Position numbers and translations under genes: made by a program. Shown here in pieces: positions 48,852 to 63,978 of a stretch of DNA of 64,000 nt; position 1 is the stretch's first letter, and each line of letters begins with the position of its first letter. The notes below the pieces were generated by a model, which did not search any database, was not told where the DNA came from, and saw only the letters and a program-made list of their open reading frames with translations. The DNA lies in contig JAUSEK010000015.1 of the NCBI GenBank assembly GCA_030650275.1, forward strand, positions 3,834 to 67,833, read 5' to 3'. The DNA comes from Candidatus Omnitrophota bacterium. GTDB taxonomy: Bacteria; Omnitrophota; Gorgyraeia; Zapsychrales; Fredricksoniimonadaceae.

Positions 48852-49490
48852 ATGGAATTCAATGAGTTTCTCAAAAAATACCAAAACCTGCCGCTTTTAA
48901 ATACTGATCTCCTTTTGACCGGAGAAACGGATCCCCGCTTATTACGGGTCCAGCTGTCGCGTTGGGTCAAAGCAGGGCATCTCTTTCGATTGAAACGGGG
49001 AGTCTATGCTTTTGCGCCGCACTTTCAAAAAATTCTCCCTTCGCCCTATCTGATCGCTTCAGTCCTGACCCGGCCATCCTATGTGAGCCTGGAAAAAGCC
49101 CTAGAATTCCATGGGCTCATTCCGGAGGCGGTTTTTACGGTCACATGTGTGACCACCAAAAGGCCGGGCCGGTTTGAAACACCGCTGGGGAGGTTCAGCT
49201 ACAATCACGTCCGGCCGCAATTGTTCTGGGGGTATGCTTCAGTCCTGCTTGAGGACCAGTCCGGATCCATGGCCCATCCGGAAAAAGCGCTTCTGGACCT
49301 TATTTATTTAAAGGCGCCGCGACTGACCAAAAATTATCTGGAGGGGCTGCGGCTGCAAAATTTTGAAAAGATCAACGCCGGTAGGCTGCTGGAATACGGC
49401 CGCAGGTTCAAGAAACCGCGCATGCTTCACGCGGCCGGGATGATCATCGCATATATGAAAAAAACGGCATCCACGGAGAAAAAACTATGA
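48852..49490 (+). CDS. abiEi: AbiEi-family antitoxin/transcriptional regulator (type IV toxin-antitoxin), with an N-terminal AbiEi_4-type winged HTH.
   Basis: The 212-aa product MEFNEFLKKYQNLPLLNTDLLLTGETDPRLLRVQLSRWVKAGHLFRLKRGVYAF… matches the AbiEi N-terminal domain pattern. Its stop overlaps the next gene's start by 4 bp (ATGA at 49487-49490), as is usual for AbiE operons. Confidence 0.75.
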   Translation: MEFNEFLKKYQNLPLLNTDLLLTGETDPRLLRVQLSRWVKAGHLFRLKRGVYAFAPHFQKILPSPYLIASVLTRPSYVSLEKALEFHGLIPEAVFTVTCVTTKRPGRFETPLGRFSYNHVRPQLFWGYASVLLEDQSGSMAHPEKALLDLIYLKAPRLTKNYLEGLRLQNFEKINAGRLLEYGRRFKKPRMLHAAGMIIAYMKKTASTEKKL

Positions 49491-50290
49491 AAGACCATTG
49501 TCTGGAGCTCGCCCGGCAACAGTCCGGTCCTTCCGAAAAATATAATGTCCTGCGGGAATACACGCAGGCCTATGTTCTCAACATCATGCAGGAGGCGGGG
49601 GCGCTGCGGTCTTGCGTGTTCGTCGGCGGAACGGCACTGCGCTTTCTGTATGATCTTCCGCGCTTTTCAGAAGACCTGGACTTCTGTGCGGTCGGCCCAT
49701 ACGATCTTGTGTTCGCTGACCTCCTGGGCAAGATCAAACAGGAGCTGGTCCTGGCCGGCTATGAGGTCAGCGTCACCTACAGCGACGATAAAACCGTTCA
49801 TTCGGCGTTTATCAAATTTGAAGGGCTGTTGTTCGAGGCCGGGCTTTCACGCTTAAAGAGCGAAAAATTCTCCATCAAGATCGAGATCGATACCAGGCCG
49901 CCCGGCGGCGCGGTCGTTGTGACAAGGGTCATCAATAAATTCTTCCCCATGGCGTTTTTAACGTATGACCTGCCGTCGTTGTTCGCCGGAAAGATGCACG
50001 CCGTCCTGAGCCGCAAATACGTCAAAGGACGGGATTATTACGATATCGCGTGGTATCTGTCTAAGCGCAAAGACCTGCTACCCAATCTTGCCCTGCTTTC
50101 CGCCGCGCTGGAACAAACGGGCTGGAAAGGACCGGCCGTGACCGGGGAAAACTGGCGGTCCGTTCTTGCGGCGCGGGTTGAACAAACGGATTGGAAGATC
50201 GTGGACCAGGACGTCAACAATTTCCTCGAGCGGCCAGAAGACCTGAAGGTGTTGACGAAAGAGAATGTTCTTCGATTGCTCGCAGAATAG
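49487..50290 (+). CDS. abiEii: AbiEii/AbiGii-family nucleotidyltransferase toxin (DUF1814).
   Basis: The 267-aa product has the characteristic motif block …VFVGGTALRFLYDLPRFSEDLDFC… of AbiEii toxins. It is translationally coupled to the preceding antitoxin gene. Confidence 0.8.
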   Translation: MKDHCLELARQQSGPSEKYNVLREYTQAYVLNIMQEAGALRSCVFVGGTALRFLYDLPRFSEDLDFCAVGPYDLVFADLLGKIKQELVLAGYEVSVTYSDDKTVHSAFIKFEGLLFEAGLSRLKSEKFSIKIEIDTRPPGGAVVVTRVINKFFPMAFLTYDLPSLFAGKMHAVLSRKYVKGRDYYDIAWYLSKRKDLLPNLALLSAALEQTGWKGPAVTGENWRSVLAARVEQTDWKIVDQDVNNFLERPEDLKVLTKENVLRLLAE

Positions 50291-50307: not shown

Positions 50308-51228
50308 TTATTTCCCGGCGCCCAAGGCCTGCAGGGGGTTATTTTGGATGAAATCAAGGAAAATAGGGCCAGCCACTAAAATAGCCACCACCGGGAAGAT
50401 AAAGAACAGGAGGGGAATAAGCATTTTCAAAGGGGCTTTTAAGGCCACGGTCTCCCCGCGCCTGAAACGGGCCTCGCGCATATCTTCGGAAAGGATGTTG
50501 AGGGCCTCGCTCACCGAGGTCCCCATGCGGTCGGCCTGAATGAGGGTGCGGGAAAAGGTGGAGAGATCCGGCATCTCATATTTGCGGGCCATGTCGCGCA
50601 AGGCGTCGCGCCGCGGCTTGCCCACGTTGATCTCCTGCATCATGCTTTTCAATTCCTCAATGATCACCGAACCGTGGGACTTTTCCACCACGTATTTGAG
50701 CGCCATCATGAAATCCAGTCCCGCGTTGACGCAAAGCCCCAGCAAGTCCACCGTATCCGGCAATTCGCGCAAAATCGTGTCCCTGACTTTCTTGATGCGC
50801 GCCTTCAGCCACAACTCGGGAAGCATATATCCGGCCGCGATGCTCATCAGAACAGAAAACAGCAGGATCTCCTTGCCGACGTAGGACACGCTGGTCCACA
50901 AAAAAATGAGGACCAGGATCTCCTTGATCAAAAAGAATTCCTCGACGGAAATAGCGGTCCTGCTCATTCCTAAGTCCGTGGCCATGCGCCTGCCCAAAGG
51001 CAAAACAGCCAACGGCTTATTAAAAAAAGCCAATTTGCTGATCATGCTAAAAATGAGCTGCAGCGGCTTTTTTTTCTTCGGCTTGACCGTAACAGGCGGC
51101 TCCATGCCTTCAACGGTGAAACTGCCAACGGGGTTTAATTTCAATGTCGGGCGGCCCTTGACAGGCATCAAAGCCAGGGCCAGGGCAAAGACGGCAAAAA
51201 AGGCGAACATCAGTGACAAGACGAGCAT
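50308..51228 (-). CDS. tadC: Tad/Flp pilus assembly inner-membrane protein, TadC-like (T2SS F-domain family).
   Basis: The 306-aa product has an N-terminal TM helix, a cytoplasmic T2SSF-type domain (…ELPDTVDLLGLCVNAGLDFMMALKYV…) and C-terminal TM helices. Confidence 0.7.
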   Translation of the reverse strand: MLVLSLMFAFFAVFALALALMPVKGRPTLKLNPVGSFTVEGMEPPVTVKPKKKKPLQLIFSMISKLAFFNKPLAVLPLGRRMATDLGMSRTAISVEEFFLIKEILVLIFLWTSVSYVGKEILLFSVLMSIAAGYMLPELWLKARIKKVRDTILRELPDTVDLLGLCVNAGLDFMMALKYVVEKSHGSVIIEELKSMMQEINVGKPRRDALRDMARKYEMPDLSTFSRTLIQADRMGTSVSEALNILSEDMREARFRRGETVALKAPLKMLIPLLFFIFPVVAILVAGPIFLDFIQNNPLQALGAGK

Positions 51229-51331: not shown

Positions 51332-52186
51332 TTAAATGTCCTTGAACGTTGATATCTTCAAAATACTCAACGCCCCCACCACCCACAAAACCAGACAGAG
51401 GGCCACCAATTTCTGTCCGTCGGGGGTGTGGAGCATGGGGTCAAAAAATTTGGGATTGGTCGCCGAAACGCCGAAGACGAAAACCACCGGCAACCCGGTC
51501 ATGACCGCGGCCTGGATCTTGCCCTGCACGGTCAGGGTCTGGAGATTCTGCTCGATCTTCCTGCGTTCGCGTATGGTGGTGACGATGCGCGAAAAAATGA
51601 GCGGCAAATTTCCGCCGGTCTCGCGCGCTAATAAAATGGCGGTGATCATCTGCTGAAGGCCGGGGGAGGGCATGCGCTGGTAGAGCCGGTTGAGCGACTC
51701 GTCGAGCGCAACGCCCATTTTATTCTCGCCGAGCACGATGCCGAATTCCTGCCTGATGGGCTCCGGCATTTCCTCCGTGACCGCCTCAACCGCCTGGATC
51801 AAGCTCAAGCCCCCGCGAAAAGAACTGGACATGATCATCAGCGCGTCCATCAATTGATCGTTGAATTTCGCTTTGCGGTCCCTGATGATCTTCGCGACAT
51901 ACAGCCGCGGGATAATGGCCCCCAGCGCGATCCCGACAAAGATCCCGAATACCCGCGCGTCATGAAAAAAAACAAACCCCGCCAGACCAAGGGCGGCCGG
52001 CGCGATGATCTGCAGGCGGTAGGCCTTTTGAAAATCCCGGCCCTGCAAATGAACGTCAACCTTTAAAGCAAGGTCCTTGGCGTTCTTTTCATTCATTTCC
52101 CTGGTCTTGGCAATGACCACGGGAACAAGGGTATAAGACAGCACGCCGGCACAAATGAAAAACAAAAACAAGGTCATTTCAAACAT
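51332..52186 (-). CDS. tadB: Tad/Flp pilus assembly inner-membrane protein, TadB-like (T2SS F-domain family).
   Basis: The 284-aa product has an N-terminal TM helix, a T2SSF domain (…LIQAVEAVTEEMPEPIRQEFGIVLGENKMGVALDESLNRLYQRMPSPGLQQMI…) and C-terminal TM helices. Confidence 0.7.
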   Translation of the reverse strand: MFEMTLFLFFICAGVLSYTLVPVVIAKTREMNEKNAKDLALKVDVHLQGRDFQKAYRLQIIAPAALGLAGFVFFHDARVFGIFVGIALGAIIPRLYVAKIIRDRKAKFNDQLMDALMIMSSSFRGGLSLIQAVEAVTEEMPEPIRQEFGIVLGENKMGVALDESLNRLYQRMPSPGLQQMITAILLARETGGNLPLIFSRIVTTIRERRKIEQNLQTLTVQGKIQAAVMTGLPVVFVFGVSATNPKFFDPMLHTPDGQKLVALCLVLWVVGALSILKISTFKDI

Positions 52187-52215: not shown

Positions 52216-52569
52216 TCAGTAATACGGGTCGCTGTTGGGTTCGCGACAATTGCCGGAACATCCCTGGATAATGCCCGCTTCACACGCGGCAACATCAACA
52301 GCCGTGACGCAGGCGCGACGGCCGTTGTCGAAACAACGCTCATCATACCATGTCCTTGTGGCCGTATCGTGGGCGCACTCAACGGTGCGTTTGGGATCGT
52401 ATTGCCGGCCGAACGCAAAAGAATCGCCGGCGGTTTTCCATCGTCCGTAAAAGGCGCGCACAATAGGGCCTTTCATCCAAAACAGCGCCGCTAAAATGAT
52501 CGCGATCAAAAGCGCGTATTCAATGACGGCGCGACCGCGATTTCTAGCGACCCAGTGTGTTCTCATCAA
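52216..52569 (-). CDS. TadE-like pseudopilin with a class III (Tad-type) prepilin signal (…RGRAVIEYALLIAIILAALF…).
   Basis: 117 aa with an N-terminal G/xxxEY-type leader and a hydrophobic helix. Confidence 0.55.
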   Translation of the reverse strand: MMRTHWVARNRGRAVIEYALLIAIILAALFWMKGPIVRAFYGRWKTAGDSFAFGRQYDPKRTVECAHDTATRTWYDERCFDNGRRACVTAVDVAACEAGIIQGCSGNCREPNSDPYY

Positions 52570-55500
52570 AGGCTCCGGCAGGGCAGGGGACGAATTTGAC
52601 TTCCATGTGATTCGTCGACCGGTTGCCTGTATACACGGCGCATACCGTGGTCTTGGTCCCCTGGCTCAATAATGAATCCACCGTGGCCCAGCAACTCGCG
52701 GGGATCGTATTGAAGGGATCGCTGCCAACAGTATTGAGCATGAACGCCTGCCCGACCGATTGTTGGTCCGCCGCGGTCCCGCTGTTGATAACATAATTTC
52801 CCGCAATACCCAAACCCTGTCTCTGGCAGGCGGACAGCCCGGCGGCCGATCCCGGCACTGTGCCGGGTTTGCCAAAATGAAAATTCCACACCGGAACCGT
52901 ATTATTGAACGTCGTTGTCGCCGGGCGTTCTTCATCCCAGCGGGTGACGCGCGTCAGGACCCGGCCGTCGTAATCTTTTAACTCGGAGTGTTGTCTCGTC
53001 CACAAAAACCCGTCGGTGTCTACTTCAATATGCGGCAGATTGTCACGGTTGCCCGTGCCATACTCGCACATGCCCGCCACCGGGCATTTGCCAGGCCCCA
53101 TGCCTTCGGCCCGGACCATATGCCAATGCTGTGCCCTTGACGGATTTTTGGGATCAACGGGGCTTTGCCAGCCATACACAAGAAAATTAGGCATCTTGTC
53201 AAGATACAGCTGATAGTCCTGAAGGACAAGGAACAAAGACGGCACCGGCCGCTGGTCCGGATCGATCGTTCCGTCGGCAAGCATGGTCCCATACAGAAAA
53301 TTATCCAGCATCATCTTGCCGTGAGCGACCGTTCCCAGCGCCGCTTTGGTATTGCCCTTGATCGTTCTTAAATGTTCCTTCCTGGCCGTGAATTGCGCCG
53401 ACTGCGGCCCGGACAGATCATAGCTGTCATCCACCCATTTCTTATACAGCGATGGGGTCGCGCATGGGTCAAAGGCGGGCACGGGGCAATTTTGTGGCTG
53501 TTCAGGAGGAGCGGGTTCGCACACCAAAGACCGCGGCAATTCTTGGCAGACCGCCGGCAATGACGGGCACAGAACGCCCGACACGCTGCTTGCGCATGCC
53601 TGAAGATCGGCAAGACTATTCTGCTTGGCCGTTTCGCACGCAGAGATCTGTGCCTGGGTGCCGGTGCATATCTGGGCGGACACATCGGCAATTTGTTGTG
53701 CGATCCCGTTAAGTACCGCGGCCTTGGCGCTTGCGTCGCATGGATCAAACGAGGCGGCACAGCTGGGCGTCGCACAAGACAGGGCATCCAAAGCATCCTT
53801 GCATGTCTTGAAACGAACATCATTGGTTGAATTCCAGTCCAGGCATGCGATGACGCTGTTCAGCGATCCCCACGGGTTGCCTTTGAATTGGCCGGGGTTG
53901 GAATAGCAGCCGGGACAGGTGTCAAAGGTTTTGGTATAATCAATCTCATCGGGGGTCATTTGCGCATATTGAGGGTCGCTCTCACGCGGCATGCACCAGG
54001 CATTGAACTGCGGAAAAACATACGGTGTTATACCAAGGAACAGTCCCCTGTCGTGATAATCCTTCAAAAGATCATCCGTGGTCACGTCATCCTCGTCGCT
54101 GTTGAGCCAGGCCGTCAATGTCAGCCGCCAGGCCGTCAACCTGTTCTCAAATCGATACAAAACCCCGCCGCCCTCCTGGCAGATCAGGGCATTGCTGCCG
54201 TCGCATTCGGGGCCGATCCACACCGCGGCTTCCGGATACCATTCCTTCAAATTGGCCCTCAAAGTGTCATCATCCTGCGCTAAAAGCAGTTTGGCCCAGG
54301 CGTAGAACCCTTTCAGGGAATAAACGATGTCGTCCATCGGGTCTTCCGGCCAGTCCGCGGCTGTGGCCGGCGTGCACTTGGGGCAGGAAGTTCTGGTGCA
54401 GGCGTTTCTGGGACATTCATTATACGGCCATGTGGTGGAACAATACTGGTCTGCCCCTTCTCTCCACCAGAACCCGTTCGGGTCAAGACCGGGCTTATCC
54501 GCACAAAAGGGGGCCCGTGAGCAGAGCGGACTATCCGGGTTCACGCAATCTGGGTCATTTGGGTCCGGGCCCACCGCATGAAAAATTTGAGAGATCTTAA
54601 CCTTATCCGGCCTGCGATAGTCCCTGACACCGCCGGGGCCCGGGATCCTTAGGCCATCGCCGGTATTGCGCATGTCACCCATGTCCCAGAACAGGGAAAA
54701 TATGCCTTTGGCCTCAGCTTGGCGATCCTTGAACACTTTCTTTTCTACGTCAACCCCGAACGTGGCCAGAAAACTTGTGCCGCCGGAATATTTCGGATAG
54801 GTGGGGTCATAAATAAACGGAAAGGATGGGTCCGCTGCCGCGCATTGGGCCGGCACGGTAAGCAGACAACTGGCGGGCCGCAGGCGCTTGCCGTTGAAGG
54901 TCAGGGGCACACAGCACTTGTTGCAATGCGGATCACTGTTGGGCGTGCCATCCGGATTTTTCGGGCAGGCCTCTGTTATTTCTCCCAGCAAGGTGCCTAA
55001 CCCATCCAGGAAAACGGTAAGGTCCATGCCTGACATCGCTCTTTTAAGGGCTTTCAGGCGTTCGGTATAAAAAAATCCATACCGGCCGATCTTATCGTCG
55101 GAAGCGGGCCCGAATTTCCCGTTGGTATTGATGTCAAAATAATCAATGATCTTGCCCTGGTCCGAGACCAAACTTTGCGCGCCGGCGGACAAGCCCTGTT
55201 CCAAAAACCGGTCCTTGAGGGGCAATTTGGTATGCATTTGGTTGAAGGCCTTCACGGTCTTCACATCATTATAGACCGTGATCAGTGTGGCGGCCGCTCC
55301 CCCTATGGCTAAAGTGATCATGACGGCCGCAAGATGGGTGCCGGCCCCGGCTGTAAAATATATAATAAGGGCGGCGGCAATGAAGCTAAGAGCAACGACA
55401 ACCCAGCGCGCGAAACCGGACTTTTCAAAGCCCCCGCCCAGCGAGCTTTGGATCAGGGACTCGCCATAACTGGCAATGCCCGAAACAGTGTTGGCGGCCG

Positions 55501-55642
55501 CATTGGTGGCTGCCGTGGTCGTCATGTTCTTGATCTGCGACACGCGTCCCCAGTTGAGCGTGACGGCAAAAAAGATGAGCGCGATGGCGGCCAGTAAAAT
55601 AAGAACGAGGGCGGCTTGCCCTTTATAATTTTTCATAGTCAC
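52544..55642 (-). CDS. Large (about 1030 aa) Cys-rich TadE/TadG-like pilus-associated protein. The likely start is ATG at 55636 (MKNYKGQAALVLILLAAIALIFF…); the track start at 55642 is a GTG.
   Basis: The N-terminus has a Tad-type prepilin-like leader plus a hydrophobic helix. The remainder is an extracellular Cys/Pro/Asp/Trp-rich domain (…CNKCCVPLTF…, …CPRNACTRTSCPKCTP…). Confidence 0.6.
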   Translation of the reverse strand: MTMKNYKGQAALVLILLAAIALIFFAVTLNWGRVSQIKNMTTTAATNAAANTVSGIASYGESLIQSSLGGGFEKSGFARWVVVALSFIAAALIIYFTAGAGTHLAAVMITLAIGGAAATLITVYNDVKTVKAFNQMHTKLPLKDRFLEQGLSAGAQSLVSDQGKIIDYFDINTNGKFGPASDDKIGRYGFFYTERLKALKRAMSGMDLTVFLDGLGTLLGEITEACPKNPDGTPNSDPHCNKCCVPLTFNGKRLRPASCLLTVPAQCAAADPSFPFIYDPTYPKYSGGTSFLATFGVDVEKKVFKDRQAEAKGIFSLFWDMGDMRNTGDGLRIPGPGGVRDYRRPDKVKISQIFHAVGPDPNDPDCVNPDSPLCSRAPFCADKPGLDPNGFWWREGADQYCSTTWPYNECPRNACTRTSCPKCTPATAADWPEDPMDDIVYSLKGFYAWAKLLLAQDDDTLRANLKEWYPEAAVWIGPECDGSNALICQEGGGVLYRFENRLTAWRLTLTAWLNSDEDDVTTDDLLKDYHDRGLFLGITPYVFPQFNAWCMPRESDPQYAQMTPDEIDYTKTFDTCPGCYSNPGQFKGNPWGSLNSVIACLDWNSTNDVRFKTCKDALDALSCATPSCAASFDPCDASAKAAVLNGIAQQIADVSAQICTGTQAQISACETAKQNSLADLQACASSVSGVLCPSLPAVCQELPRSLVCEPAPPEQPQNCPVPAFDPCATPSLYKKWVDDSYDLSGPQSAQFTARKEHLRTIKGNTKAALGTVAHGKMMLDNFLYGTMLADGTIDPDQRPVPSLFLVLQDYQLYLDKMPNFLVYGWQSPVDPKNPSRAQHWHMVRAEGMGPGKCPVAGMCEYGTGNRDNLPHIEVDTDGFLWTRQHSELKDYDGRVLTRVTRWDEERPATTTFNNTVPVWNFHFGKPGTVPGSAAGLSACQRQGLGIAGNYVINSGTAADQQSVGQAFMLNTVGSDPFNTIPASCWATVDSLLSQGTKTTVCAVYTGNRSTNHMEVKFVPCPAGAFDENTLGR

Positions 55643-55890
55643 TGCCCCAGATCCACCCCGGGAGAAGCGTTGATCCTCGAGGGGTGATAAGCGTTCGATT
55701 GCAACCGTTCCAGGTTCCCCGTGGTGATCGCTGTGTTAAAAGAAGCATCGTATGCGTACTGACGCTTGGCCACGTCCATACCGACCCAGCGGAACACCTG
55801 GACCATGCCGTAAAGCAAAAACATGGCCGCGATCATGGCGAACACGAATTCAATAGTAGACTGCCCGTTGAATTTCCTCCCCCTTGTCAT
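55639..55890 (-). CDS. TadE-like pseudopilin, 83 aa if started at ATG 55890 (MTRGRKFNGQSTIEFVFAMIAAMFLLYG…). The longer track ORF to 56040 overlaps the upstream gene.
   Basis: It carries the GQSTIEF class III signal. It has ATGA-type overlaps with both neighbours at 55887-55890 and 55639-55642. Confidence 0.55.
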   Translation of the reverse strand: MTRGRKFNGQSTIEFVFAMIAAMFLLYGMVQVFRWVGMDVAKRQYAYDASFNTAITTGNLERLQSNAYHPSRINASPGVDLGQ

Positions 55891-57344
55891 GGCGCTCCCC
55901 CCAAACGCAATTGCCCCGACGCGTCCGTTTTCCAAAAATGCCCCTGCTGGTCCAGCATCCGCGAACGCACGTACAAAATCTTGCTGGCGCTGTCGAAACA
56001 GGTCCTGGCGATATTGTTGACGGAAAAACAGCCACCGCACACCTCGACAGCGGGCACTTCACTGGGCACGCCGATACCCCCACACATGCGCCCCGTGTCA
56101 TTGGACAATTGTATTTTCCGCTCGACTAAGTCCACCTGGTCCTTGCGGTTGACCGAGCGGATGAATTTTCCATCGAGATCATACGCCTTGCCCTGATTTA
56201 TCAAAAGATGATTGCCTTTGGCTGAACCAAAAGCCGGCTTGGTATAGATCGCCATATCATTCAAAAGCCCTACTTTGCCGACAGCGGCATCCGGACTGGT
56301 CATATCAAGGTCGCCTTCCTGGGAATCGAACACCACGGCCCCGGTGGCAATGCCATCGTCGTTATAATCCACCTGATAGATCGTTTCCTCCTGGCCGTCT
56401 CCGTCCACGTCAAAGGAAGGGTAGGAGCCATGGTCGGCATCAATGTGCAAGGGCTTACCGTCATCCTCATTATCGTCCATGGCCTGCACACCCCTCCACT
56501 GCCAGGTCATGTTCGCGTACAAAGACGAGGGGGGATCATTGGAAAGGTTGTCATCATGGTTGAGGTCAAAGCGTTCCGGCCCTGTCAAAAGCCCCGGACA
56601 CTGGCCGGAGGAAACACAAAACCTTTTTTCCAGGGCCTCCTGCCTGATCTCATCGCTGGCATCCTCACTGATCTCATTGCCGTCCTCCATGTTGACGACG
56701 GTTTGATAAAAGATCGGGCATCCGCGGCCACTTTTGCATGAAGAATCCCAACCGCCGCGCTGCGGCGGATCATGGACGATCGGCACAGGAGGGGCCGGGC
56801 CCTCGCAACCAGGGTCCTCCTCCGGACAGGAAAAGGAAACAGGGGCCACATAGGTTGTGGTCTCAACAAGTCCAGCTTTCGCGGAATGCACCGGACCGCC
56901 GCTGGAGCCCAAAAATCTTTTATACACAAGCCGCGCCATCGAGAAGGTGAAATGTTTACCGTTGATGAACATGTCCATAACGGGGACATGTCTGGGGTCC
57001 TGCAATTCCGACATGTCCATCGGATACATGAGCAGGTTGGTCATGCTGCCCGATCCCTGGGCCGTGAACGGCGCGCGCTCGGTGGATCCGTATTTGCCGA
57101 AATCCGGGCTCAACCGGTCTTCCAGATAAAGCATGGAAGGGCTGATGCGGCTGGTGTCGCCGGGAGTGCTTTTGGAGGACTGCACAAGGGCGTTGCGCAT
57201 GGCCTTTAAGGAGGCGTCCTGGCCCTGGCCCGAAGAAACCGCGGAACGGATGATGGCGCCCAGCACAAAAATGATGATGGCGCCGAAGATCGCCAGTTCT
57301 ATGACGGCCTGCCCTGAGCAATGTCGAAGGGCCTGTCCTTTCAA
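55887..57344 (-). CDS. 485-aa TadE-domain protein (TTG start; leader MKGQALRHCSGQAVIELAIFGAIIIFVLG) with a large Asp/Gly-rich C-terminal domain. Probably a minor pilin, adhesin or tip component.
   Basis: The N-terminus has the class III signal peptide motif GQAVIEL plus a TM helix. The C-terminal part is acidic, with DxDxDG-like stretches (…FDVDGDGQEETIYQVDYNDDGIATG…). Confidence 0.55.
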   Translation of the reverse strand: MKGQALRHCSGQAVIELAIFGAIIIFVLGAIIRSAVSSGQGQDASLKAMRNALVQSSKSTPGDTSRISPSMLYLEDRLSPDFGKYGSTERAPFTAQGSGSMTNLLMYPMDMSELQDPRHVPVMDMFINGKHFTFSMARLVYKRFLGSSGGPVHSAKAGLVETTTYVAPVSFSCPEEDPGCEGPAPPVPIVHDPPQRGGWDSSCKSGRGCPIFYQTVVNMEDGNEISEDASDEIRQEALEKRFCVSSGQCPGLLTGPERFDLNHDDNLSNDPPSSLYANMTWQWRGVQAMDDNEDDGKPLHIDADHGSYPSFDVDGDGQEETIYQVDYNDDGIATGAVVFDSQEGDLDMTSPDAAVGKVGLLNDMAIYTKPAFGSAKGNHLLINQGKAYDLDGKFIRSVNRKDQVDLVERKIQLSNDTGRMCGGIGVPSEVPAVEVCGGCFSVNNIARTCFDSASKILYVRSRMLDQQGHFWKTDASGQLRLGGAP

Positions 57345-57673
57345 AATGCACCGTCCTGACCGACTTGCATGTAACTGTTACGTTGTTCCGACGAGCGAGT
57401 GTTATCATTACGAAAGGTGGTATTGCTCAACGTCGTGATCGTTGTGTCGGATTCGGTGGCGGCTGTATATTGGGTGGTGGAATTGGTCTGCTGGGGATCA
57501 TACTGGTCGGCAAAATCGTCAACGGCGCTCTTCCATCTGCCTTGCATGCCGCGCTTGACATAACTGCTCATGCTCAAAAAGACCGCGATGATGATAATGG
57601 TCAGGACCGTGAACTCAAGTATGCTTTGCGCCCGGTGATCTCTGCGATGTCTTTGAAAATATTTGAACACCAT
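57341..57673 (-). CDS. TadE-like pseudopilin (…RAQSILEFTVLTIIIIAVFL…).
   Basis: 110 aa with a class III signal motif. It is stop-start coupled to the downstream gene. Confidence 0.5.
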   Translation of the reverse strand: MVFKYFQRHRRDHRAQSILEFTVLTIIIIAVFLSMSSYVKRGMQGRWKSAVDDFADQYDPQQTNSTTQYTAATESDTTITTLSNTTFRNDNTRSSEQRNSYMQVGQDGAF

Positions 57674-57711
57674 GCTTTCTCCGACTGTACGGGCGACCCG
57701 GCGGGTCGCCC

Positions 57712-58122
57712 CTACTGGTTCAATTTCCCGAGATTCGTCTGCGAATCGGACGTCGTATTCGTGGTCTCATTCACGGTAATATCGGCAACGCCGCCCCAGC
57801 CGGGCGTTACAACATTTTTGCTGACATGGCCCGTGACCTGTGTATTTGCCCCCACCAGATATCCCCCGGTCGCGCCCGGGTCATCGGCGTCCAGGAAATC
57901 CTGGTCGGCATTCTGTTGAGCGCCGATCTGGTCGGAGGTCACCTTCACCAAACTCTGCACGCCCCGCTTGAACAAAGGCCCCATATAAAAAAGCGCGACC
58001 GTGATGATCCCGATCAGAACAATATACTCAACGACGGTCTGGCCTTTATTTCCCATACCGGTCCCCGGCCGCGGCCCCGGGCGGAAGTTGTTCGCTATTG
58101 CTGGTCGTTTCAATGGTTTCAT
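57712..58122 (-). CDS. TadE-like pseudopilin. The probable start is ATG 58056 (MGNKGQTVVEYIVLIGIITVALF…).
   Basis: It has the GQTVVEY class III signal. The track ORF extends further 5' to 58122. Confidence 0.5.
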   Translation of the reverse strand: MKPLKRPAIANNFRPGPRPGTGMGNKGQTVVEYIVLIGIITVALFYMGPLFKRGVQSLVKVTSDQIGAQQNADQDFLDADDPGATGGYLVGANTQVTGHVSKNVVTPGWGGVADITVNETTNTTSDSQTNLGKLNQ

Positions 58123-58453
58123 TGGTTATTTTGCGAAATTGCCTGTCCGCGCCGCCGGCCAAGCCGGTCCTGACATCGCTGTTACGGCTGGTCCGGGAAT
58201 CGACTTTGCCGTAATACGGTTCATACTCGCGGGGAATGCCGCTTCCGCTGATCCCGGCCGCGGCCCTGCAATCAGGGCCGCATTCATTGGCGGCAACGTT
58301 GACCATATAATCTCTGCTGTCTTTGATCTTGGCCTGAATGGAGCGCTGGATATAGACCGTCATGGCCACGGCCGTGGCAACGACTAAAAAAAACGTCACC
58401 ACGTATTCGGGAAGGGAACTCTGGCCATTTTGGCCGTTTATGCCGCGCGCCAT
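58046..58453 (-). CDS. TadE-like pseudopilin (…GQSSLPEYVVTFFLVVATAVAMTV…).
   Basis: 135 aa with a class III signal-like N-terminus. Confidence 0.45.
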   Translation of the reverse strand: MARGINGQNGQSSLPEYVVTFFLVVATAVAMTVYIQRSIQAKIKDSRDYMVNVAANECGPDCRAAAGISGSGIPREYEPYYGKVDSRTSRNSDVRTGLAGGADRQFRKITNETIETTSNSEQLPPGAAAGDRYGK

Positions 58454-58466
58454 GAAGTTCTCCCAG

Positions 58467-58655
58467 CTATTGAGGGTTGGTCGCCCTCATCAGACGGTTG
58501 GCCATGTCCTCCATGCCATCGGTGGTTTTATTGATGGTATCGGAAAGTTTGTTCCGAAACGCCCCGCCGGGCCCGGTGAACAGGATGATCACCGCGATCA
58601 CCGCGGTGACCAACAAAATATACTCCACCGTGCTCTGGCCTTTTGTCTTCATCAT
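58467..58655 (-). CDS. flp: Flp-family type IVb pilin (MMKTKGQSTVEYILLVTAVIAVIILF…), 62 aa.
   Basis: A short product with the Flp motif G/QSTVEY and a hydrophobic helix. A GGGAG Shine-Dalgarno lies 8 nt upstream. Confidence 0.7.
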   Translation of the reverse strand: MMKTKGQSTVEYILLVTAVIAVIILFTGPGGAFRNKLSDTINKTTDGMEDMANRLMRATNPQ

Positions 58656-58702
58656 ACGCGCTCCCTACGATTTAGAAACCACTAAGGGACCCCCACCGGG
58701 GG

Positions 58703-59035
58703 TCATCTGCCCATATATTCCTGCTCGGTGTTGACGATCACCGATCTTTCCGACGTATTGGTGGTTTCGGGACCGATCAATCCGGTCGCGGAAACGCCCT
58801 GTCCGTCCACACCGAACGTCTCACGGCTCGTGCTGGACGTGTTGGTGGTCTTGATGACGTTGGTATTGCCCACCGAATACTGGTCGCCGATATCGTCGGC
58901 AGCGCTCTTTAAACGGCCCTGCACGCCGCGCTTGATGTAAAACTGGATGGACAACAGCGCGCCGATGATGATGACGGTCAGCACCGCGTATTCAAGGGTG
59001 CTTTGCCCTCTTTTTTGGCTAAAATAAGTCAACAT
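58703..59035 (-). CDS. TadE-like pseudopilin (…KRGQSTLEYAVLTVIIIGALL…).
   Basis: 110 aa with a class III signal motif. Confidence 0.5.
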   Translation of the reverse strand: MLTYFSQKRGQSTLEYAVLTVIIIGALLSIQFYIKRGVQGRLKSAADDIGDQYSVGNTNVIKTTNTSSTSRETFGVDGQGVSATGLIGPETTNTSERSVIVNTEQEYMGR

Positions 59036-59065
59036 AGAACATCCTCCTTAAGATACGATTTTATT

Positions 59066-59452
59066 TTAGTCGCCGCCGCCTGTCCCGTCGGTGCTGTACG
59101 TTGACTGCTGGGTACCGGTCCTGCTGCGGTTGGTCGTTGAGTCCGCGGCGACCAGACCCACGCCCTGACGCTTGTTCTCTTGGGCGTTACGGGTGCTGGT
59201 ATAATCGCTTTCCAGGTAATACGGTTCATACTGCGTTTGGTTGCCGATGGCGTTGGTCTGGCTGGCCAGATACTGGCTGGCATCGTGCATCCTTGCCTGC
59301 AAAGAACGCTGGGCATAGGTCTGCATCGCGATGACGCCCGCGACGACCAGGGCGATCAACAGCGCGTATTCCGCGGTGTTCTGCCCCGAGCGAAGTCGAG
59401 GGGTTTGTCCTCTGGTATTTTTAAATAAATTTCTAAACATATGTTCCTCCAT
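59066..59452 (-). CDS. TadE-like pseudopilin (…RSGQNTAEYALLIALVVAGVIAM…). An alternative start is ATG 59440.
   Basis: 128 aa with a class III signal motif. Confidence 0.5.
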   Translation of the reverse strand: MEEHMFRNLFKNTRGQTPRLRSGQNTAEYALLIALVVAGVIAMQTYAQRSLQARMHDASQYLASQTNAIGNQTQYEPYYLESDYTSTRNAQENKRQGVGLVAADSTTNRSRTGTQQSTYSTDGTGGGD

Positions 59453-59469
59453 TTATGGATGTTGTTTCT

Positions 59470-59724
59470 TTAAAATCCGGCCGTCGGGTCCACCGTGACG
59501 CCCGGCGCGGGAGTTACTCCGTTAGCGGTTGCCCCCTGGCTGTTCACCAAACGGTTGCTTATGCTCCCGATGCTGTCGGCGGTTGAGTTAAGGGTATTGC
59601 CCAAACGGCCCGTCAGTGCCGAATTCGGGCCGGTGGTAAAAAAGATCATCGCGCCGATGACCGCGGTCGCAAGCAAGATATACTCCACCGTGCTCTGACC
59701 TTTTGTCTTCATTTTCCTGAACAT
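59470..59724 (-). CDS. flp: Flp-family pilin (MFRKMKTKGQSTVEYILLATAVIGAMIFF…), 84 aa.
   Basis: It has the Flp motif and a perfect AGGAGG 7 nt upstream of the ATG at 59724. Its 5' end is near-identical to the flp gene at 58467-58655. Confidence 0.7.
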   Translation of the reverse strand: MFRKMKTKGQSTVEYILLATAVIGAMIFFTTGPNSALTGRLGNTLNSTADSIGSISNRLVNSQGATANGVTPAPGVTVDPTAGF

Positions 59725-59757
59725 ATAAATGCCTCCTGATGTATTTAAGATGCTTTG

Positions 59758-60015
59758 TTATTCGTTGGCGATCTCCTGCGTCACCGCCTTCTGGGTGGCC
59801 TGCACGGAACGGAACACGTAGGTGCTCATGGCCGCCATAGCAGCGGACACCAAGGCCACGACGATCGCGTATTCGATGAGATTTTGTCCTTTGATGTTCC
59901 TAAGGATCATCGCGGCTGCTCCTACATGAAAGATAAAGGAAGTATGCCATATAAAATAAGGGATGTCAACCCTTCGACCTAAAAATTCGCGTTGTTTTCC
60001 GACGCTATCTGACAC
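59758..60015 (-). CDS. flp: Flp-family pilin. The likely start is ATG 59910 (MILRNIKGQNLIEYAIVVALVSAAMAAM…).
   Basis: It has the GQNLIEY class III signal. The track ORF extends to 60015 and overlaps the upstream gene. Confidence 0.55.
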   Translation of the reverse strand: MSDSVGKQREFLGRRVDIPYFIWHTSFIFHVGAAAMILRNIKGQNLIEYAIVVALVSAAMAAMSTYVFRSVQATQKAVTQEIANE

Positions 60016-61295
60016 AGGACCCGGCGCCCGTTCTCATCGCGGATATTCAGGGCATTGACATTATCCGCGGCCTGCCGCAGAAAAGCAATGTGCGCATAAG
60101 AGGCAGGGGCCAGAAGGGTTATGTGTCTGCCCTGCTCAATAACCCCTTTAAGGGCCAAAACCGACTCAAAGGCATCCTGCCCAAAATCGGACGGGAAAAA
60201 GGCGCGCGCACGGGCTTGAAGCCGGGCCAAAACCCATGCCGGCTGGTCCGCAATATCCCCCCGCAAACTATCCGCCAGGGGGGACATGTTGATTTGAACC
60301 GGAGGATGGCGGTCTTTGAAGATACGCGCAATTTCATCATTTGATATATGTGGGCTAAAATTTGATAAAACTGACATATTCTTATCATATCCATCCATTT
60401 CTAGCCTTATATATCGTAATTTATGGTTATTCTGCTCCACTTCTAGATTTCTTGGCATTCCAAGAATGACATTCTTTTTTTGACGGGGGGAACAGGAAAA
60501 TTGAGCCAGGACAATTCCTCCTGCGCCCAACAAGGATGCCCGTGTCATGCCTTTACCAGCCACGCCCTCACAGGCCTGAAAAAAACTAAGGATCAAGGCG
60601 TCCGTAGCATTCTCCCCCAAGGAGCGTATGCATAAAGGATTGATATTATTAAGGATACAATCTGCGGTGTCCTGGATACAGCGCTCAATGCCTGCGGGAA
60701 AAATAGCCCTGCTAGGACCAAGGGCCTGAAAACGGCTGTCCATCTCAACACAAGAACCGTCTTCCAGATCGATCTTTAAACGTTCAACCACGGTGGATAT
60801 ATACTCCCATTCTTCTCGTAAGTTATTCAGATTTAATGACTTAATGTCTTCCAGTTTCTTGATCCCCCATACAGGACGGGGGAAAATATCCCAAAAAGTG
60901 GCTTTAATGAAAATCTCGCCCATGCGTTCCTGGACTTCGCCCCTGACCAACGGGCTGGGGGCTTGTTCCACAACACGCGGGGCCTGCTCTATGAGTTTTG
61001 GGGCAGGCGGTGGGGGTTGGAAGATCACGCCAGGCACGACATTGGCGAACAATTGCTGTTTCTTCTCCGGGGGGATCTGGAATTTGATCTTGGGTTTTCG
61101 GCCGCGAGGGATGACCACGCCATGTTCTTTTAAGACATCATGGACCGATGACTTAGAAACGACCTTTTGATGCCGTTCATGGACCAAGCCGGCGATCTCC
61201 CGGCAGGACAGACGGGGAGTTTCCTGTTTGCGTTCAATAATAAAGGAAACAACGTCTTCGGTGAGTTTATAAACAACGCCCATAGAAACCCCCAA
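59979..61295 (-). CDS. HTH-domain protein of unknown function. The N-terminal roughly 60 aa form a helix-turn-helix (…LSCREIAGLVHERHQKVVSKSSVHDVLKEHG…). The track start is TTG at 61295; ATG at 61283 is more likely.
   Basis: 438 aa with an N-terminal HTH. A 19-bp perfect palindrome sits immediately upstream (61297-61315). Confidence 0.45.
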   Translation of the reverse strand: MGVSMGVVYKLTEDVVSFIIERKQETPRLSCREIAGLVHERHQKVVSKSSVHDVLKEHGVVIPRGRKPKIKFQIPPEKKQQLFANVVPGVIFQPPPPAPKLIEQAPRVVEQAPSPLVRGEVQERMGEIFIKATFWDIFPRPVWGIKKLEDIKSLNLNNLREEWEYISTVVERLKIDLEDGSCVEMDSRFQALGPSRAIFPAGIERCIQDTADCILNNINPLCIRSLGENATDALILSFFQACEGVAGKGMTRASLLGAGGIVLAQFSCSPRQKKNVILGMPRNLEVEQNNHKLRYIRLEMDGYDKNMSVLSNFSPHISNDEIARIFKDRHPPVQINMSPLADSLRGDIADQPAWVLARLQARARAFFPSDFGQDAFESVLALKGVIEQGRHITLLAPASYAHIAFLRQAADNVNALNIRDENGRRVLCQIASENNANF

Positions 61296-61483: not shown

Positions 61484-61825
61484 TCAACCGATTTGAATAT
61501 TATCGCCCATGTGTGTTTGGGAGGCGGCAATGGTGCCGGCAGAGGTCTCAATGGCGCTGTGGGCTTGCAGGAAGAATGGAGAAAATTGAAAAGGCCGGAT
61601 GTCGGGGCACAGGCCCACCGCCGTGTTCGCGCGGTCAATAAAAATGACGTCCAGCGGGAATTTCATGAACAGCATGTGGATGCTGCGGCAGGGGGTGATG
61701 ACCAGCGCTTCGCCGGAATTGAGCGCCCCGCGGCCCAGCAGTCCGGTCATGCGTTTGAGGGGAGTTTTCGCCAGCGAACCGGTCTCGGCGATCAGCGTGC
61801 CGCGGGTCAAATTACGGATGGTCAT
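61484..61825 (-). CDS. DUF192 (COG1430) family protein.
   Basis: The 113-aa product has the pattern …GLLGRGALNSGEALVITPCRSIHMLFMKFPLDVIFIDRANTAV…, which matches the DUF192 signature. It has an ATGA overlap with the upstream ATPase gene. Confidence 0.45.
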   Translation of the reverse strand: MTIRNLTRGTLIAETGSLAKTPLKRMTGLLGRGALNSGEALVITPCRSIHMLFMKFPLDVIFIDRANTAVGLCPDIRPFQFSPFFLQAHSAIETSAGTIAASQTHMGDNIQIG

Positions 61826-63978
61826 ACGTTAAAGACGGCCTTGGACAGCGGAATGCCTCTGGTCTGGAAGTCCTCGAAACATTTGGGCACAAAGCCGGTG
61901 GCGCTGTATTCGCCCAGCACCACGCCGTCGGCATTGATGCCTTTTTGTTTAAAAATGAATACGTCCTTGAGCTCCGGAAGGCCCTCGACTATTTTTCCGG
62001 TCAGCTCGGAGATCGCCGTGATCTTGCGCGACCCGTCGGAAAAACGGGAAATTTGGATAATGATGTTGATGGCGGAGGCCGCCATTTCATAAATGGCGCG
62101 GATGGGCAGTTCAATGCCGGAAAGAAGCACCATGGAGCTCATGCGCGAGAGCACATCGCGCGGGGAATTGGCGTGCAGGGTCGTCAAAGACCCGTCGTGG
62201 CCGGTGTTCATGGCCTGGAGCATGTCCAGGACTTCCGGGCCGCGGCATTCGCCGATGATGATGCGGTCGGGCCGCATGCGCAAGGTGTTGATGAACAGGT
62301 CCCGGATGGTCACGCGTCCGCGGCCTTCAATGTTGGGCGGCTTGGACTCCAGGCGCGCCCAATGACTTTTCACCAAACGCAGTTCCGCCGCGTCTTCAAT
62401 GGTGATGATGCGCTCATTGTCCGGAATGAATTGCGAAACGATATTGAGCAGTGTTGTCTTGCCCGCGCCGGTGCCGCCGGAAACGATCACGTTCTTGCGG
62501 CCGATGACGCAGGCGTTCAGAAAATCCACCATGGGCTGGGACAGGGAATGGAATTTATTTAAAAGGTCGTCAACGGTGTAGCGCTCCTGGGCAAACTTGC
62601 GGATGGTGATCATGGGCCCGCCCAGCGACAGCGGGGGGATGATGGCGTTGATGCGCGAGCCGTCGGGCAATCGGGCGTCCACCATCGGGGCGCTCTCGTC
62701 CACGCGCCGGCCCAGGGGAGCGATGATGCGGTCAATGGTGGCGCGCACCTGGTCGTTGGAAATGAAGCGCTTGTTGGTCAAAATGATCTTGCCGCGTTTC
62801 TCGACGAAGATCTCATCCTTGTTGTTGACCATGATGTCGTTGATCTCCGGGTCGGCCAGAAAATCCTCCAGCGGCCCCAGGCCGAGGGCTTCATTGACGA
62901 TCTCACGCACCAAACGCGAGCGCTCCTCATGCGAAGCGATGAAAGCGCCGGCGGCCTCGGCCAGCAATTCGGAAACGATCTTGGCCGCGGCCTTGCGGAT
63001 ATTGGCGGCCTGTGCCGGGTCGGAAAGCGCCTCGGGCGAGATCTTCTGCACGTTCATGCGCTCAACCAGACGCTGATGGATGGCTTTTTTAAGTTTGATG
63101 ACCTCGTCCTCTTCCTGCCTATAGATCGTGACGGGCGATGAGGATCCGGGGGCAATGCCGAATTTTTCCCAGAACTCATTGCCCTTCTGGGCCTGCGTGT
63201 CCGCCGCGCGCACCTTGATGACGTCCGAGGCCTGCACATACATGTCTTCAACTTCGAGTTTGCCGGCAATCTCAAAAAATGACTCGGACACGCGGGCTTT
63301 GGGGCTGTCCATGACGCAGGGGACCCCGCGGTTGAGCGCCAGGCCGACGGTCTTCCCGTCGGAGGGAACGAGGGCGAAAATGTCGCAGGCCAGCGCCGAC
63401 TTGACCTCCTGCCAGGCCACCCCGCCGCGGCTTTCAGCGCGGTTGAGAATGAGTTTGACCATCTTTAAAGGATAGTGCAGGCTCTGAAGGATGTCGAGCG
63501 TCGCCTTGACCTGATAAACAGCCAAAATGTCCGGCGTCGCGACGAGAAGAATTAAATTGGAAGAATCCAGAACGCTGATGAGCATTTCGCTGAAGGCGCT
63601 GCCGGCATCCACGACAATGTAATCATAGATCAACGCCGCCTTCTTTAAAAAAGGACGGATATTGTCGGCCGTGATGTGTCCGGTCTGGCGGATATGCGTG
63701 ACGCCGGGCAGGAACTCCAGGCCGCTGGCATGGCGCAGGACATAACCGCGGATGATGTCGGGTTTCTCGTCCTTTTCAACGGCCGCCAGAAGATCAACGA
63801 GGGATTGCGTGGGGACAAGATTGAGCATGCGGGCCATGTCCTGACCGGCCTGCACGTCCAGGTCCACGATCAGGGTTTTCTTGGCCTTAAGGGCCAGGGC
63901 GGTCGCGATGTTGACGCCGACAAAGGTCTTGCCGACGCCGCCTTTATTGCTGAAAACCGTTATGACTCTGCAGGACAT
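61822..63978 (-). CDS. tadZA: Fusion of a TadZ/CpaE-like ParA/MinD-type ATPase domain (N-terminal) and a TadA/CpaF secretion ATPase (C-terminal).
   Basis: A deviant Walker A motif ([13 protein letters not shown]) lies at residues 8-20. CpaF-type Walker A ([16 protein letters not shown]) and the helical/His-box region (…[32 protein letters not shown]…) are in the C-terminal half. An in-frame stop upstream at 63988-63990 fixes the ATG at 63978 as the first start. Confidence 0.8.

Follow-up and report, generated by a model that had tools for sequence, protein, structure and literature searches.

What do the two large, unannotated genes encode that stand before one of the record-size genes of Omnitrophota? 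These bacteria are abundant, uncultured, and ultra-small, and are thought to prey on or parasitize other microbes; their giant genes are a standing puzzle. We pursued the question in a window of 64,000 nucleotides (nt) from the metagenome-assembled genome (MAG) of a Candidatus Omnitrophota bacterium (assembly GCA_030650275.1, contig JAUSEK010000015.1, positions 3,834 to 67,833 of the forward strand), which is the whole stretch of DNA analyzed and to which all coordinates refer. The products of the two genes, here termed proteins A and B, are encoded about 4 kb upstream of a giant open reading frame (ORF). We consider it probable that B, a small TadE-like protein of 83 amino acids (aa), A, and a pilin-like protein of 117 aa form the minor-pilin set that primes and caps an Omnitrophota Flp fiber, that is, a tip or initiation complex of the TadE/F/G and KilLMN kind.

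Based on ORF calls and translations, the interval 52544-57344 holds three genes, all on the minus strand. An earlier reading of this DNA, made from the sequence only, had seen two of them, A and B. Both are real genes, and their products are 100% identical to the deposited hypothetical proteins Q7K71_04085 (A) and Q7K71_04095 (B) of a Candidatus Omnitrophota MAG; the third gene, for the 83-aa protein between them, had been overlooked. The genes are joined by overlapping codons: the preceding pilin gene overlaps B (TTTGA), the stop codon of B overlaps the start of the 83-aa gene (ATGA), and the stop codon of the latter overlaps the GTG start of A (GTGA). Mis-called starts of A (GTG or ATG) and B (TTG) were considered, and both the homologs and these stop/start junctions back the starts used. 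Only the 83-aa product reaches the threshold of the Pfam TadE model PF07811, with a score of 22.9 bits that equals the gathering threshold.

Both large proteins begin with class III prepilin-like leaders, as the sequence-only reading had claimed, and the N-termini it quoted (MKNYKGQAAL... and ...SGQAVIELAIFG...) are both present in the translations. Protein A starts with MTMKNYKG/QAALVLILLAAIALIFFAV, giving the cut site KG/QAALVL, and protein B has ...RHCSG/QAVIELAIFGAIIIFVLGAII, with the cut site SG/QAVIEL and E16 at position +5. These leaders are conserved across both families. In the A family (152 representatives), 130 have Gly at position -1 and the others Ser or Ala, 145 have Gln at +1, and 124 have Ile or Val at +5, where Glu never occurs. 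Among 94 relatives of B, Ala (58) or Gly (33) occupies -1, Gln is at +1 in 92, and Glu is at +5 in at least 79. The motif positions (-1, +1, and +5) of A and B agree with those of eight neighboring pilins, and conservation across whole families is more than a plain signal anchor would require. Among the twelve pilin-like genes of the locus, A is the only one without Glu5. Glu+5 was also absent from the canonical TadG-type N-termini that we examined, and its lack in A argues against an ordinary fiber subunit but not against a TadG-like cap.

Remote homology was pursued by aligning N-terminal profiles of both families (hhalign) to 414 ORFs that start with a hydrophobic helix and come from canonical tad loci of other bacteria. 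These loci derived from a metagenome scan with the ATPase of the window, which returned mostly canonical tad loci of other phyla and one Omnitrophota-type locus (L086). The A profile ranked TadG-type N-termini at the top (best E 2.1e-5, approximately 0.009 when corrected for 414 tests), and nine of the ten top matches that were checked carry PF13400 above threshold, some of them together with a von Willebrand factor A (vWA) domain. The B profile placed TadE-type N-termini first (best E 5.4e-6), with PF07811 in eight of ten checked top matches. Both sets of alignments begin exactly at the cleavage site and stay in register, and for A they extend through the TadG-typical L(N/D)xG(R/K) motif (LNWGR versus LDLGK). 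Judged from these profiles, A is a putative and very divergent TadG-type protein and B a putative and very divergent TadE/F-type protein, which would place two conserved, unannotated genes of a giant-gene-linked locus in the TadE-/TadG-type class of minor pilins.

Direct comparison with the curated models gave little. The N-terminal fragments of A and B had no match to PF07811 (gathering threshold 22.9 bits) even at E <=10, and none of 63 relatives of B matched it. PF13400 (gathering threshold 22.3 bits) matched none of 30 whole A relatives; among nine N-terminal fragments of the A family there were two sub-threshold matches (E 0.06 and 0.62), beginning exactly at G-1, and a Burkholderia TadG-related control scored E 1.2e-12 with the same model. 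Several canonical TadG-type proteins carry a vWA domain, and none was present in A or its 30 relatives. A database search with the N-terminal profile of A, aimed at linking it to PF13400 proteins through intermediates, yielded no more than 10 short fragments.

A conserved Tad-type locus before giant genes

The genes lie in an operon with the same-strand order fused TadZ-TadA ATPase, DUF192 protein, 438-aa protein, eight Flp-like pilins, B, 83-aa gene, A, 117-aa pilin, TadC, and TadB. Upstream of the ATPase, related loci encode a peptidyl-prolyl isomerase (PPIase), RcpC/CpaB, and a TonB_C-bearing secretin, and by its gene content the locus encodes a complete Tad-type apparatus. The C-terminal TonB_C domain of the secretin is an unusual fusion, which might connect the channel in the outer membrane with peptidoglycan or the inner membrane.

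This arrangement is widespread. Searches with the A profile found 743 cluster representatives at E <=1e-3 and 362 at E <=1e-30, mostly full length at 900-1,900 aa, and B has at least 100 homologs. A scan of one genome per species yielded 80 loci, all from Omnitrophota-type MAGs, which were annotated with hidden Markov models (HMMs) built for this analysis. An A-family ORF lies within about 1.5 kb after B in 63 of the 66 loci with enough sequence, a small TadE-like gene stands between the two in 55 of these 63, and the pilin-like gene of 116/117 aa, by its sequence a candidate fourth minor pilin, is kept after A in nearly all related loci. Of 41 loci that hold the ATPase as well as TadB, 38 retain the full gene order; the exceptions, L082, L084, and L085, are three distant variants. 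As a core gene, A occurs in a single copy per locus and not as a set of swappable paralogs, and A and B are both core, phylum-wide components.

Giant genes are part of the same pattern, as the sequence-only reading had proposed to check by comparative genomics. Where at least 2 kb of sequence followed tadB, a homolog of the giant gene was present in 31 of 39 loci (scored as an ORF that stays open to the end of the fetched DNA and shows homology to the first 900 aa of the giant protein of the window), and in the other eight (L009, L023, L034, L038, L044, L045, L066, and L084) no giant gene was within reach. The called downstream products comprise 26,040 aa (L002), 44,129 aa (L004), and 74,508 aa (L005). 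In the window, the giant ORF contains a Peptidase_C39 domain near its N-terminus (giant aa ~210-287; Pfam) and a 1,3-beta-glucan synthase (FKS1-like) domain (E 4e-44; giant aa ~13,011-13,497, approximately window positions 7,900-9,400; Pfam), in keeping with its earlier description as a glucan-active neighbor; the other ~15,000 residues had no Pfam match at E <=1e-4. A membrane segment of its own lies at the N-terminus of the giant protein. It is odd that a protein proposed to degrade cell walls should carry a synthase domain and not a hydrolase domain.

Neither the locus nor its link to giant genes is new to the literature. For Omnitrophota, published work describes a type II secretion-like locus that is conserved upstream of giant genes (10.1101/2023.11.21.568195; also 10.64898/2026.06.07.730766). 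The locus of West-Roberts et al. 2023 and Seymour et al. 2023 is the same as ours, with secretin, RcpC, PPIase, GspE/F-like proteins, small class III-signal genes, and the giant gene. In the passages searched, the West-Roberts preprint describes annotated genes only and calls the other secretion-system proteins less well conserved (10.1101/2023.11.21.568195). The two large orphan families are not described there, and relative to these passages their assignment as TadE/TadG-type minor pilins is new.

The published type II secretion-like label raises the alternative of a piston, in which a short periplasmic pseudopilus, not an adhesive pilus, would carry a tip of A, B, and the two small pilins that binds the giant protein or its fragments and pushes them out or holds them at the surface. 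Such a role, which is compatible with a minor-pilin set, would fit the position of the operon directly before a giant-gene homolog in most loci and the TonB_C domain of the secretin; additionally, four minor pilins of which the largest lacks Glu5 correspond to the pattern of GspH-I-J-K. However, a TadA/CpaF-type ATPase fused to TadZ, split TadB and TadC, RcpC/CpaB, and short Flp-type pilins mark Tad pili, the membrane segment and C39 peptidase domain of the giant protein suggest that it is exported in a different way, a secretin pore would hardly accommodate a folded substrate of 16,000-75,000 aa, and eight of the 39 loci had no giant gene within reach. We regard the piston as unlikely.

Variants of the locus were also seen. 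In a short form (L073, L077, L078, L080, L081, and L086), A has ~640-800 aa and B ~385-460 aa, the gene after A encodes ~65-70 aa, and several loci are without the TadE-like gene between B and A; three of these loci (L077, L078, and L080) still precede a giant-gene homolog. Some single MAGs contain two or three separate copies of the B-A locus (L016, L035, and L062 in nzgw313; L077 and L081 in SO_2017_LW3_121), and a genome may therefore operate several pilus systems of this kind, perhaps one for each giant gene. The 3.4-kb contig of L069, labeled Candidatus Saccharibacteria, and many loci labeled 'uncultured Planctomycetales' have Omnitrophota-specific gene content, and these labels are probably binning or naming errors.

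Protein bodies and the hydrophobic hairpin of A

Beyond the leaders, the two proteins differ in composition. Protein A has 38 Cys (3.7%), with three CxxC and one CC; it is Cys-rich, as had been stated, with fewer cysteines than the 'about 50' in CxxC/CC patterns that had been counted. The family median is 44 Cys, and in an alignment of 30 sequences, on which the AlphaFold model of A also rests, no fewer than 17 Cys columns show either no variation or at least 90% conservation. Protein B comprises 8.7% Asp, 10.3% Gly, and 11 Cys. Its description as Asp/Gly-rich with calcium-binding-like stretches was borne out by two DxDxDG-like motifs (DVDGDG at 312 and DYNDDG at 326), in which D312, D314, and D316, along with E320, are invariant or at least 90% conserved. 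Conservation of the Cys columns of A and of the Asp/Glu loop of B indicates that these features are selected and not due to chance, and both are of a kind that marks extracytoplasmic proteins. At the loop position, the B profile weakly matched the calcium-binding propeller of the PL11 lyases YesX/YesW (E 0.0075), and apart from this match the profile found nothing in PDB.

The AlphaFold model of B (63-sequence alignment; pLDDT 80.4, pTM 0.76) has a helix at residues 9-58, followed by strands at 70-78, 90-98, 122-127, 130-135, and 138-144 and by further beta-rich domains. As modeled, this long helix followed by an antiparallel sheet fits the outline of a pilin. The model of A (pLDDT 76.5, pTM 0.66) has a helix at residues 7-66, a low-confidence stretch at 77-125, a mostly helical body, and, at 820-1018, a beta domain. 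Conservation within A is highest in the N-terminal helix (0.67 and 0.58). The indel-rich, Cys-rich regions of A (aa 223-432 and 631-730) lie on a scaffold that is better conserved, a pattern to be expected where a protein is exposed at the surface. Approximately half of the top 50 Foldseek matches of A in PDB were alpha pore-forming toxins of the ClyA family (AhlB, SmhB, MakA, NheA, ClyA, and PaxB), none of which was significant (E 0.9-4, probability <=0.25, TM-score <=0.24); their recurrence, of interest in view of the hydrophobic hairpin described below, is a lead only, and we rejected it as evidence.

Hydropathy revealed three hydrophobic segments in A (aa 5-35, 75-102, and 102-125), the last two of which had escaped the sequence-only reading. 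They form a hairpin (aa 75-126) that is present in 144 of 154 relatives of A, ranges from 45 to 70 residues, and, loop included, is without charged residues in all 30 aligned relatives. In the relatives it is flanked by 'LGG..K.C' and 'QPG.T..WNK.Q', and in the model of A its pLDDT is below 50. The hairpin occurred in none of ten canonical TadG-type proteins, nor in the Burkholderia TadG-related protein. It may be an extra membrane anchor, be packed in the helix bundle of a tip complex, or be a device for entry into a target membrane.

The first of these options leads to a different role for A, as a three-helix inner-membrane component of the Tad machinery (an anchor, stator, or scaffold) and not a subunit of the fiber, with B and the small pilins alone forming the tip. 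The first helix of A would dock on the pilus base, the hairpin would stay in the membrane, and the Cys-rich body would fill the periplasm. The three hydrophobic segments, the near-universal hairpin, and its low AlphaFold confidence, usual for lipid-embedded segments that are modeled alone, would all fit this arrangement, as would the status of the A family as a fixed core gene and not a swappable paralog set. Moreover, the first description of Aggregatibacter TadG reportedly presented it as a membrane protein. Several observations nevertheless speak against it. The peptidase-type site (G-1/Q+1), which a plain anchor does not need, is kept in 85-95% of 152 diverged relatives; the hairpin loop lacks positive charges, unlike a normal cytoplasmic loop; and only ~10 residues link the end of the 60-residue helix to the hairpin, which is awkward for placing both in one bilayer. 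Furthermore, TadG has been reported in pilus fiber preparations (PMC12607857). We therefore hold it to be rather unlikely that A remains in the membrane.

The third option would make A a tip subunit with a membrane-insertion hairpin, carried out on the Tad fiber and inserted into the prey membrane on contact, a scenario that we put forward as very doubtful. Before extension, the hairpin would rest in the inner membrane of the predator or be buried in the helix bundle of the tip; contact would then harpoon the prey or open a path where the co-encoded giant protein works on the envelope. To our knowledge, no type IV filament has been described with a pilin fused to a hairpin that resembles a pore-former or an anchor, and if the hairpin enters target membranes, this would be a new mode of action for these filaments.

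A proposed tip complex and its counterparts

If B, the 83-aa protein, A, and the 117-aa pilin constitute the minor-pilin set that we favor, their N-terminal hydrophobic helices would insert all four in the inner membrane, where a prepilin peptidase encoded elsewhere would cut after the Gly or Ala that precedes the conserved Gln. The alpha1 helices would then bundle, and the complex would prime the step in which the TadZ-TadA ATPase, on the TadB/C platform, polymerizes the small Flp pilins, and would ride the distal end of the fiber through the RcpC/secretin channel. Being TadG-type and without Glu5, A would be the top-most cap, in parallel to TadG/CpaL/KilN and GspK, and would show its disulfide-stabilized, indel-variable body outside; B, which is TadE/F-type and keeps Glu5, would sit beneath it and add calcium-stabilized beta domains. 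The exposed domains of A and B would likely make the first contact with the envelope of the prey or host cell, the parts facing the prey probably being the variable Cys-rich body of A and the calcium-loop domains of B. The fixed position of the operon before the giant gene suggests that this contact and the giant envelope-active protein belong to one process, a connection between pilus contact and the action of the giant protein that can be tested.

Comparable tips have been proposed. KilL/M/N of Myxococcus, TadE/F/G of pathogens, and CpaJ/K/L of Caulobacter have been modeled as trimers in which the large TadG-like subunit is distal and presents a variable domain (PMC12075869, PMC12607857), and a large TadG-like minor pilin with a distal domain on a trimeric tip is now an established model for predatory Tad pili (PMC12075869). 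In Bdellovibrio, knock-down of tadG impairs prey invasion and predation, and Omnitrophota share with this organism a presumably predatory or parasitic lifestyle, a fused TadZ-TadA, and a locus without TadV (10.64898/2026.07.08.737194). The HMMs of the tip1-4 genes matched only in Myxococcota (PMC12075869), so membership of A and B by sequence is not expected. In gene arrangement, the locus does correspond to the KilLMN type, with one small and two extended TadE/F/G-like pilin genes that are contiguous, the largest of which has many cysteines and no PDB homolog.

Specifically, A resembles TadG, CpaL, and KilN in its G-1, its hydrophobic helix without Glu5, and its L(N/D)xG(R/K) motif in register, as well as in being the largest pilin-like gene of the locus and adjacent to TadE-type genes; like KilN, it has a distal body without a PDB homolog and with many cysteines or predicted disulfides (PMC12075869). 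In contrast to TadG, A is below the PF13400 threshold, lacks vWA, and is two to four times larger (900-1,900 aa). Its ~3.6% Cys compares with 0.5-2.5% in canonical TadG, none of ten canonical proteins has the hairpin, and, unlike TadG and KilN, A is a single-copy core gene and not one of several interchangeable tip sets. On sequence criteria, the A family thus differs from every TadG examined in size, cysteine content, the absence of vWA, and the conserved hydrophobic hairpin, and, if it belongs to the TadG class, it extends that class to 900-1,900 aa and adds a hairpin absent from the ten canonical members.

Protein B and the 83-aa protein share with TadE, TadF, KilL, KilM, CpaJ, and CpaK the G/A-1, Q+1, and Glu+5 positions followed by a hydrophobic helix, and KilL, like B, has an extended C-terminal region (PMC12075869). 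B differs from TadE in its length (400-700 aa versus ~150-200 aa typically), in not being called by PF07811, and in its additional beta-rich domains with a conserved DxDxDGxxE loop and no fold match in PDB. A further parallel concerns the cap minor pseudopilins, GspK of type II secretion and PilX/PilK of type IVa pili. Each is reportedly (Korotkov and Hol 2008) the largest of a four-gene minor-pilin set, the only one without Glu5, and proposed to lie at the extreme tip. A fits this pattern among the twelve pilin-like genes of its locus. It has no sequence or fold match to GspK or PilX/PilK, and differs from them in its Flp-type leader, Tad-type machinery, and hairpin.

Several results weigh against a minor-pilin set. 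No Pfam or NCBIfam model matches A, B, their N-terminal fragments, 63 relatives of B, or 30 relatives of A, so that the 'TadE-domain' label of the sequence-only reading holds as remote profile likeness, TadE-type for B and TadG-type for A, and not as a curated domain. The same searches gave neither protein a confident unrelated annotation. The hhalign matches span just ~30-50 hydrophobic residues. Structure prediction, suggested earlier as a check, produced a pilin-like helix plus sheet for B; the model of A is without a beta-sheet directly after alpha1, neither model has a significant Foldseek match in PDB, and A has no sequence-profile match there either. No recognizable adhesin domain (vWA, lectin, or Ig) was found in A or B. 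Additionally, the hairpin could anchor A in the inner membrane and prevent it from being pulled out into the fiber, and a prepilin peptidase gene, sought at the locus only, was found neither in the window nor upstream of the ATPase in related loci, including 5.8 kb of L086.

The lack of curated matches, together with hhalign probabilities of 3-10% versus any single TadG or TadE, would also suit a reading of A and B as ordinary secreted or membrane proteins, with pilin-like leaders by chance and an incidental operon position. We judge this highly improbable: positions -1, +1, and +5 are kept family-wide and match those of the eight neighboring pilins, the profiles rank true TadG and TadE above ~400 other ORFs with membrane helices, and 63 of 66 loci share a fixed order, in which adjacent genes overlap at their start and stop codons.

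Features of the window and minor observations

The coordinates of the features are collected in Table 1.

Table 1. Features of the operon, the giant ORF, and the two large proteins, with positions in the 64,000-nt window
Feature	Position	Strand	Description
Fused TadZ-like (ParA/MinD) and TadA/CpaF secretion ATPase, 718 aa	61822..63978	-	Pfam T2SSE E 9e-59 and ParA/AAA_31; NCBIfam TadA family
DUF192 protein	61484..61825	-	Conserved operon member; Pfam PF02643 E 9e-16; synteny
Conserved 438-aa protein	59979..61295	-	Weak N-terminal HTH_32-like match (transposase-type, IS481-like)
Eight tandem small Flp-like pilin genes	57341..60015	-	Each with class III motif G/Q(S/T)x(V/L)E(Y/F)
Protein B	55887..57344	-	485 aa, TTG start; ORF and translation
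B aa 312-331	56352..56411	-	DVDGDGQEE...DYNDDG, integrin/FG-GAP-type DxDxDGxxE calcium-binding-like loop
83-aa TadE-like small minor pilin (putative)	55639..55890	-	Leader MTRGRKFNG/QSTIEF
Protein A	52544..55642	-	1032 aa from GTG, or 1030 aa from ATG two codons later (NCBI start)
A aa 1-66	55445..55642	-	Class III leader and long alpha1 helix, LNWGR motif
A aa 75-126	55265..55420	-	Helical hairpin: two hydrophobic helices with a short uncharged loop between
116/117-aa pilin-like protein	52216..52569	-	RNRG/RAVIEY, 6 Cys, directly 3' of A
TadC-like platform protein (T2SSF)	51332..52186	-	Pfam
TadB-like platform protein (T2SSF)	50308..51228	-	Pfam
Giant ORF, >16,133 aa	3..48401	-	Open frame to the window edge; conserved downstream neighbor of operon

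The eight Flp-like pilins have 49, 84, 128, 110, 62, 135, 136, and 110 aa and match Pfam Class_IIIsignal and Flp_Fap weakly. L002 carries this eight-gene block too, and L004 and L005 have seven to eight of these genes; such paralogs are far more numerous than in a canonical tad locus, with three in the Burkholderia control (L166). Homologs of the 438-aa protein (344-979 aa), for which the weak HTH match is the sole similarity, always occupy the slot between DUF192 and the pilins (L004 4587-7070, L005 5448-7148, and L086 8887-10458). The fused ATPase of the window (61822-63978) and the TonB_C-bearing secretin of the locus were noted together, with positions 33-1652 in L004, 15-2051 in L005, and 4179-5762 in L086. 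In the last of these loci, a Cache-HAMP-SpoIIE phosphatase-HATPase sensor (57-1901), a possible regulator, lies upstream of PPIase-RcpC-secretin.

Finally, the window has, on the plus strand between tadB and the giant gene, a pair of genes for the antitoxin AbiEi and the nucleotidyltransferase toxin AbiEii (48852-50290). The corresponding slot in L002 holds AAA_14/DUF4143 and MazE-like genes, and it appears to be a variable cargo site within an otherwise rigid locus.

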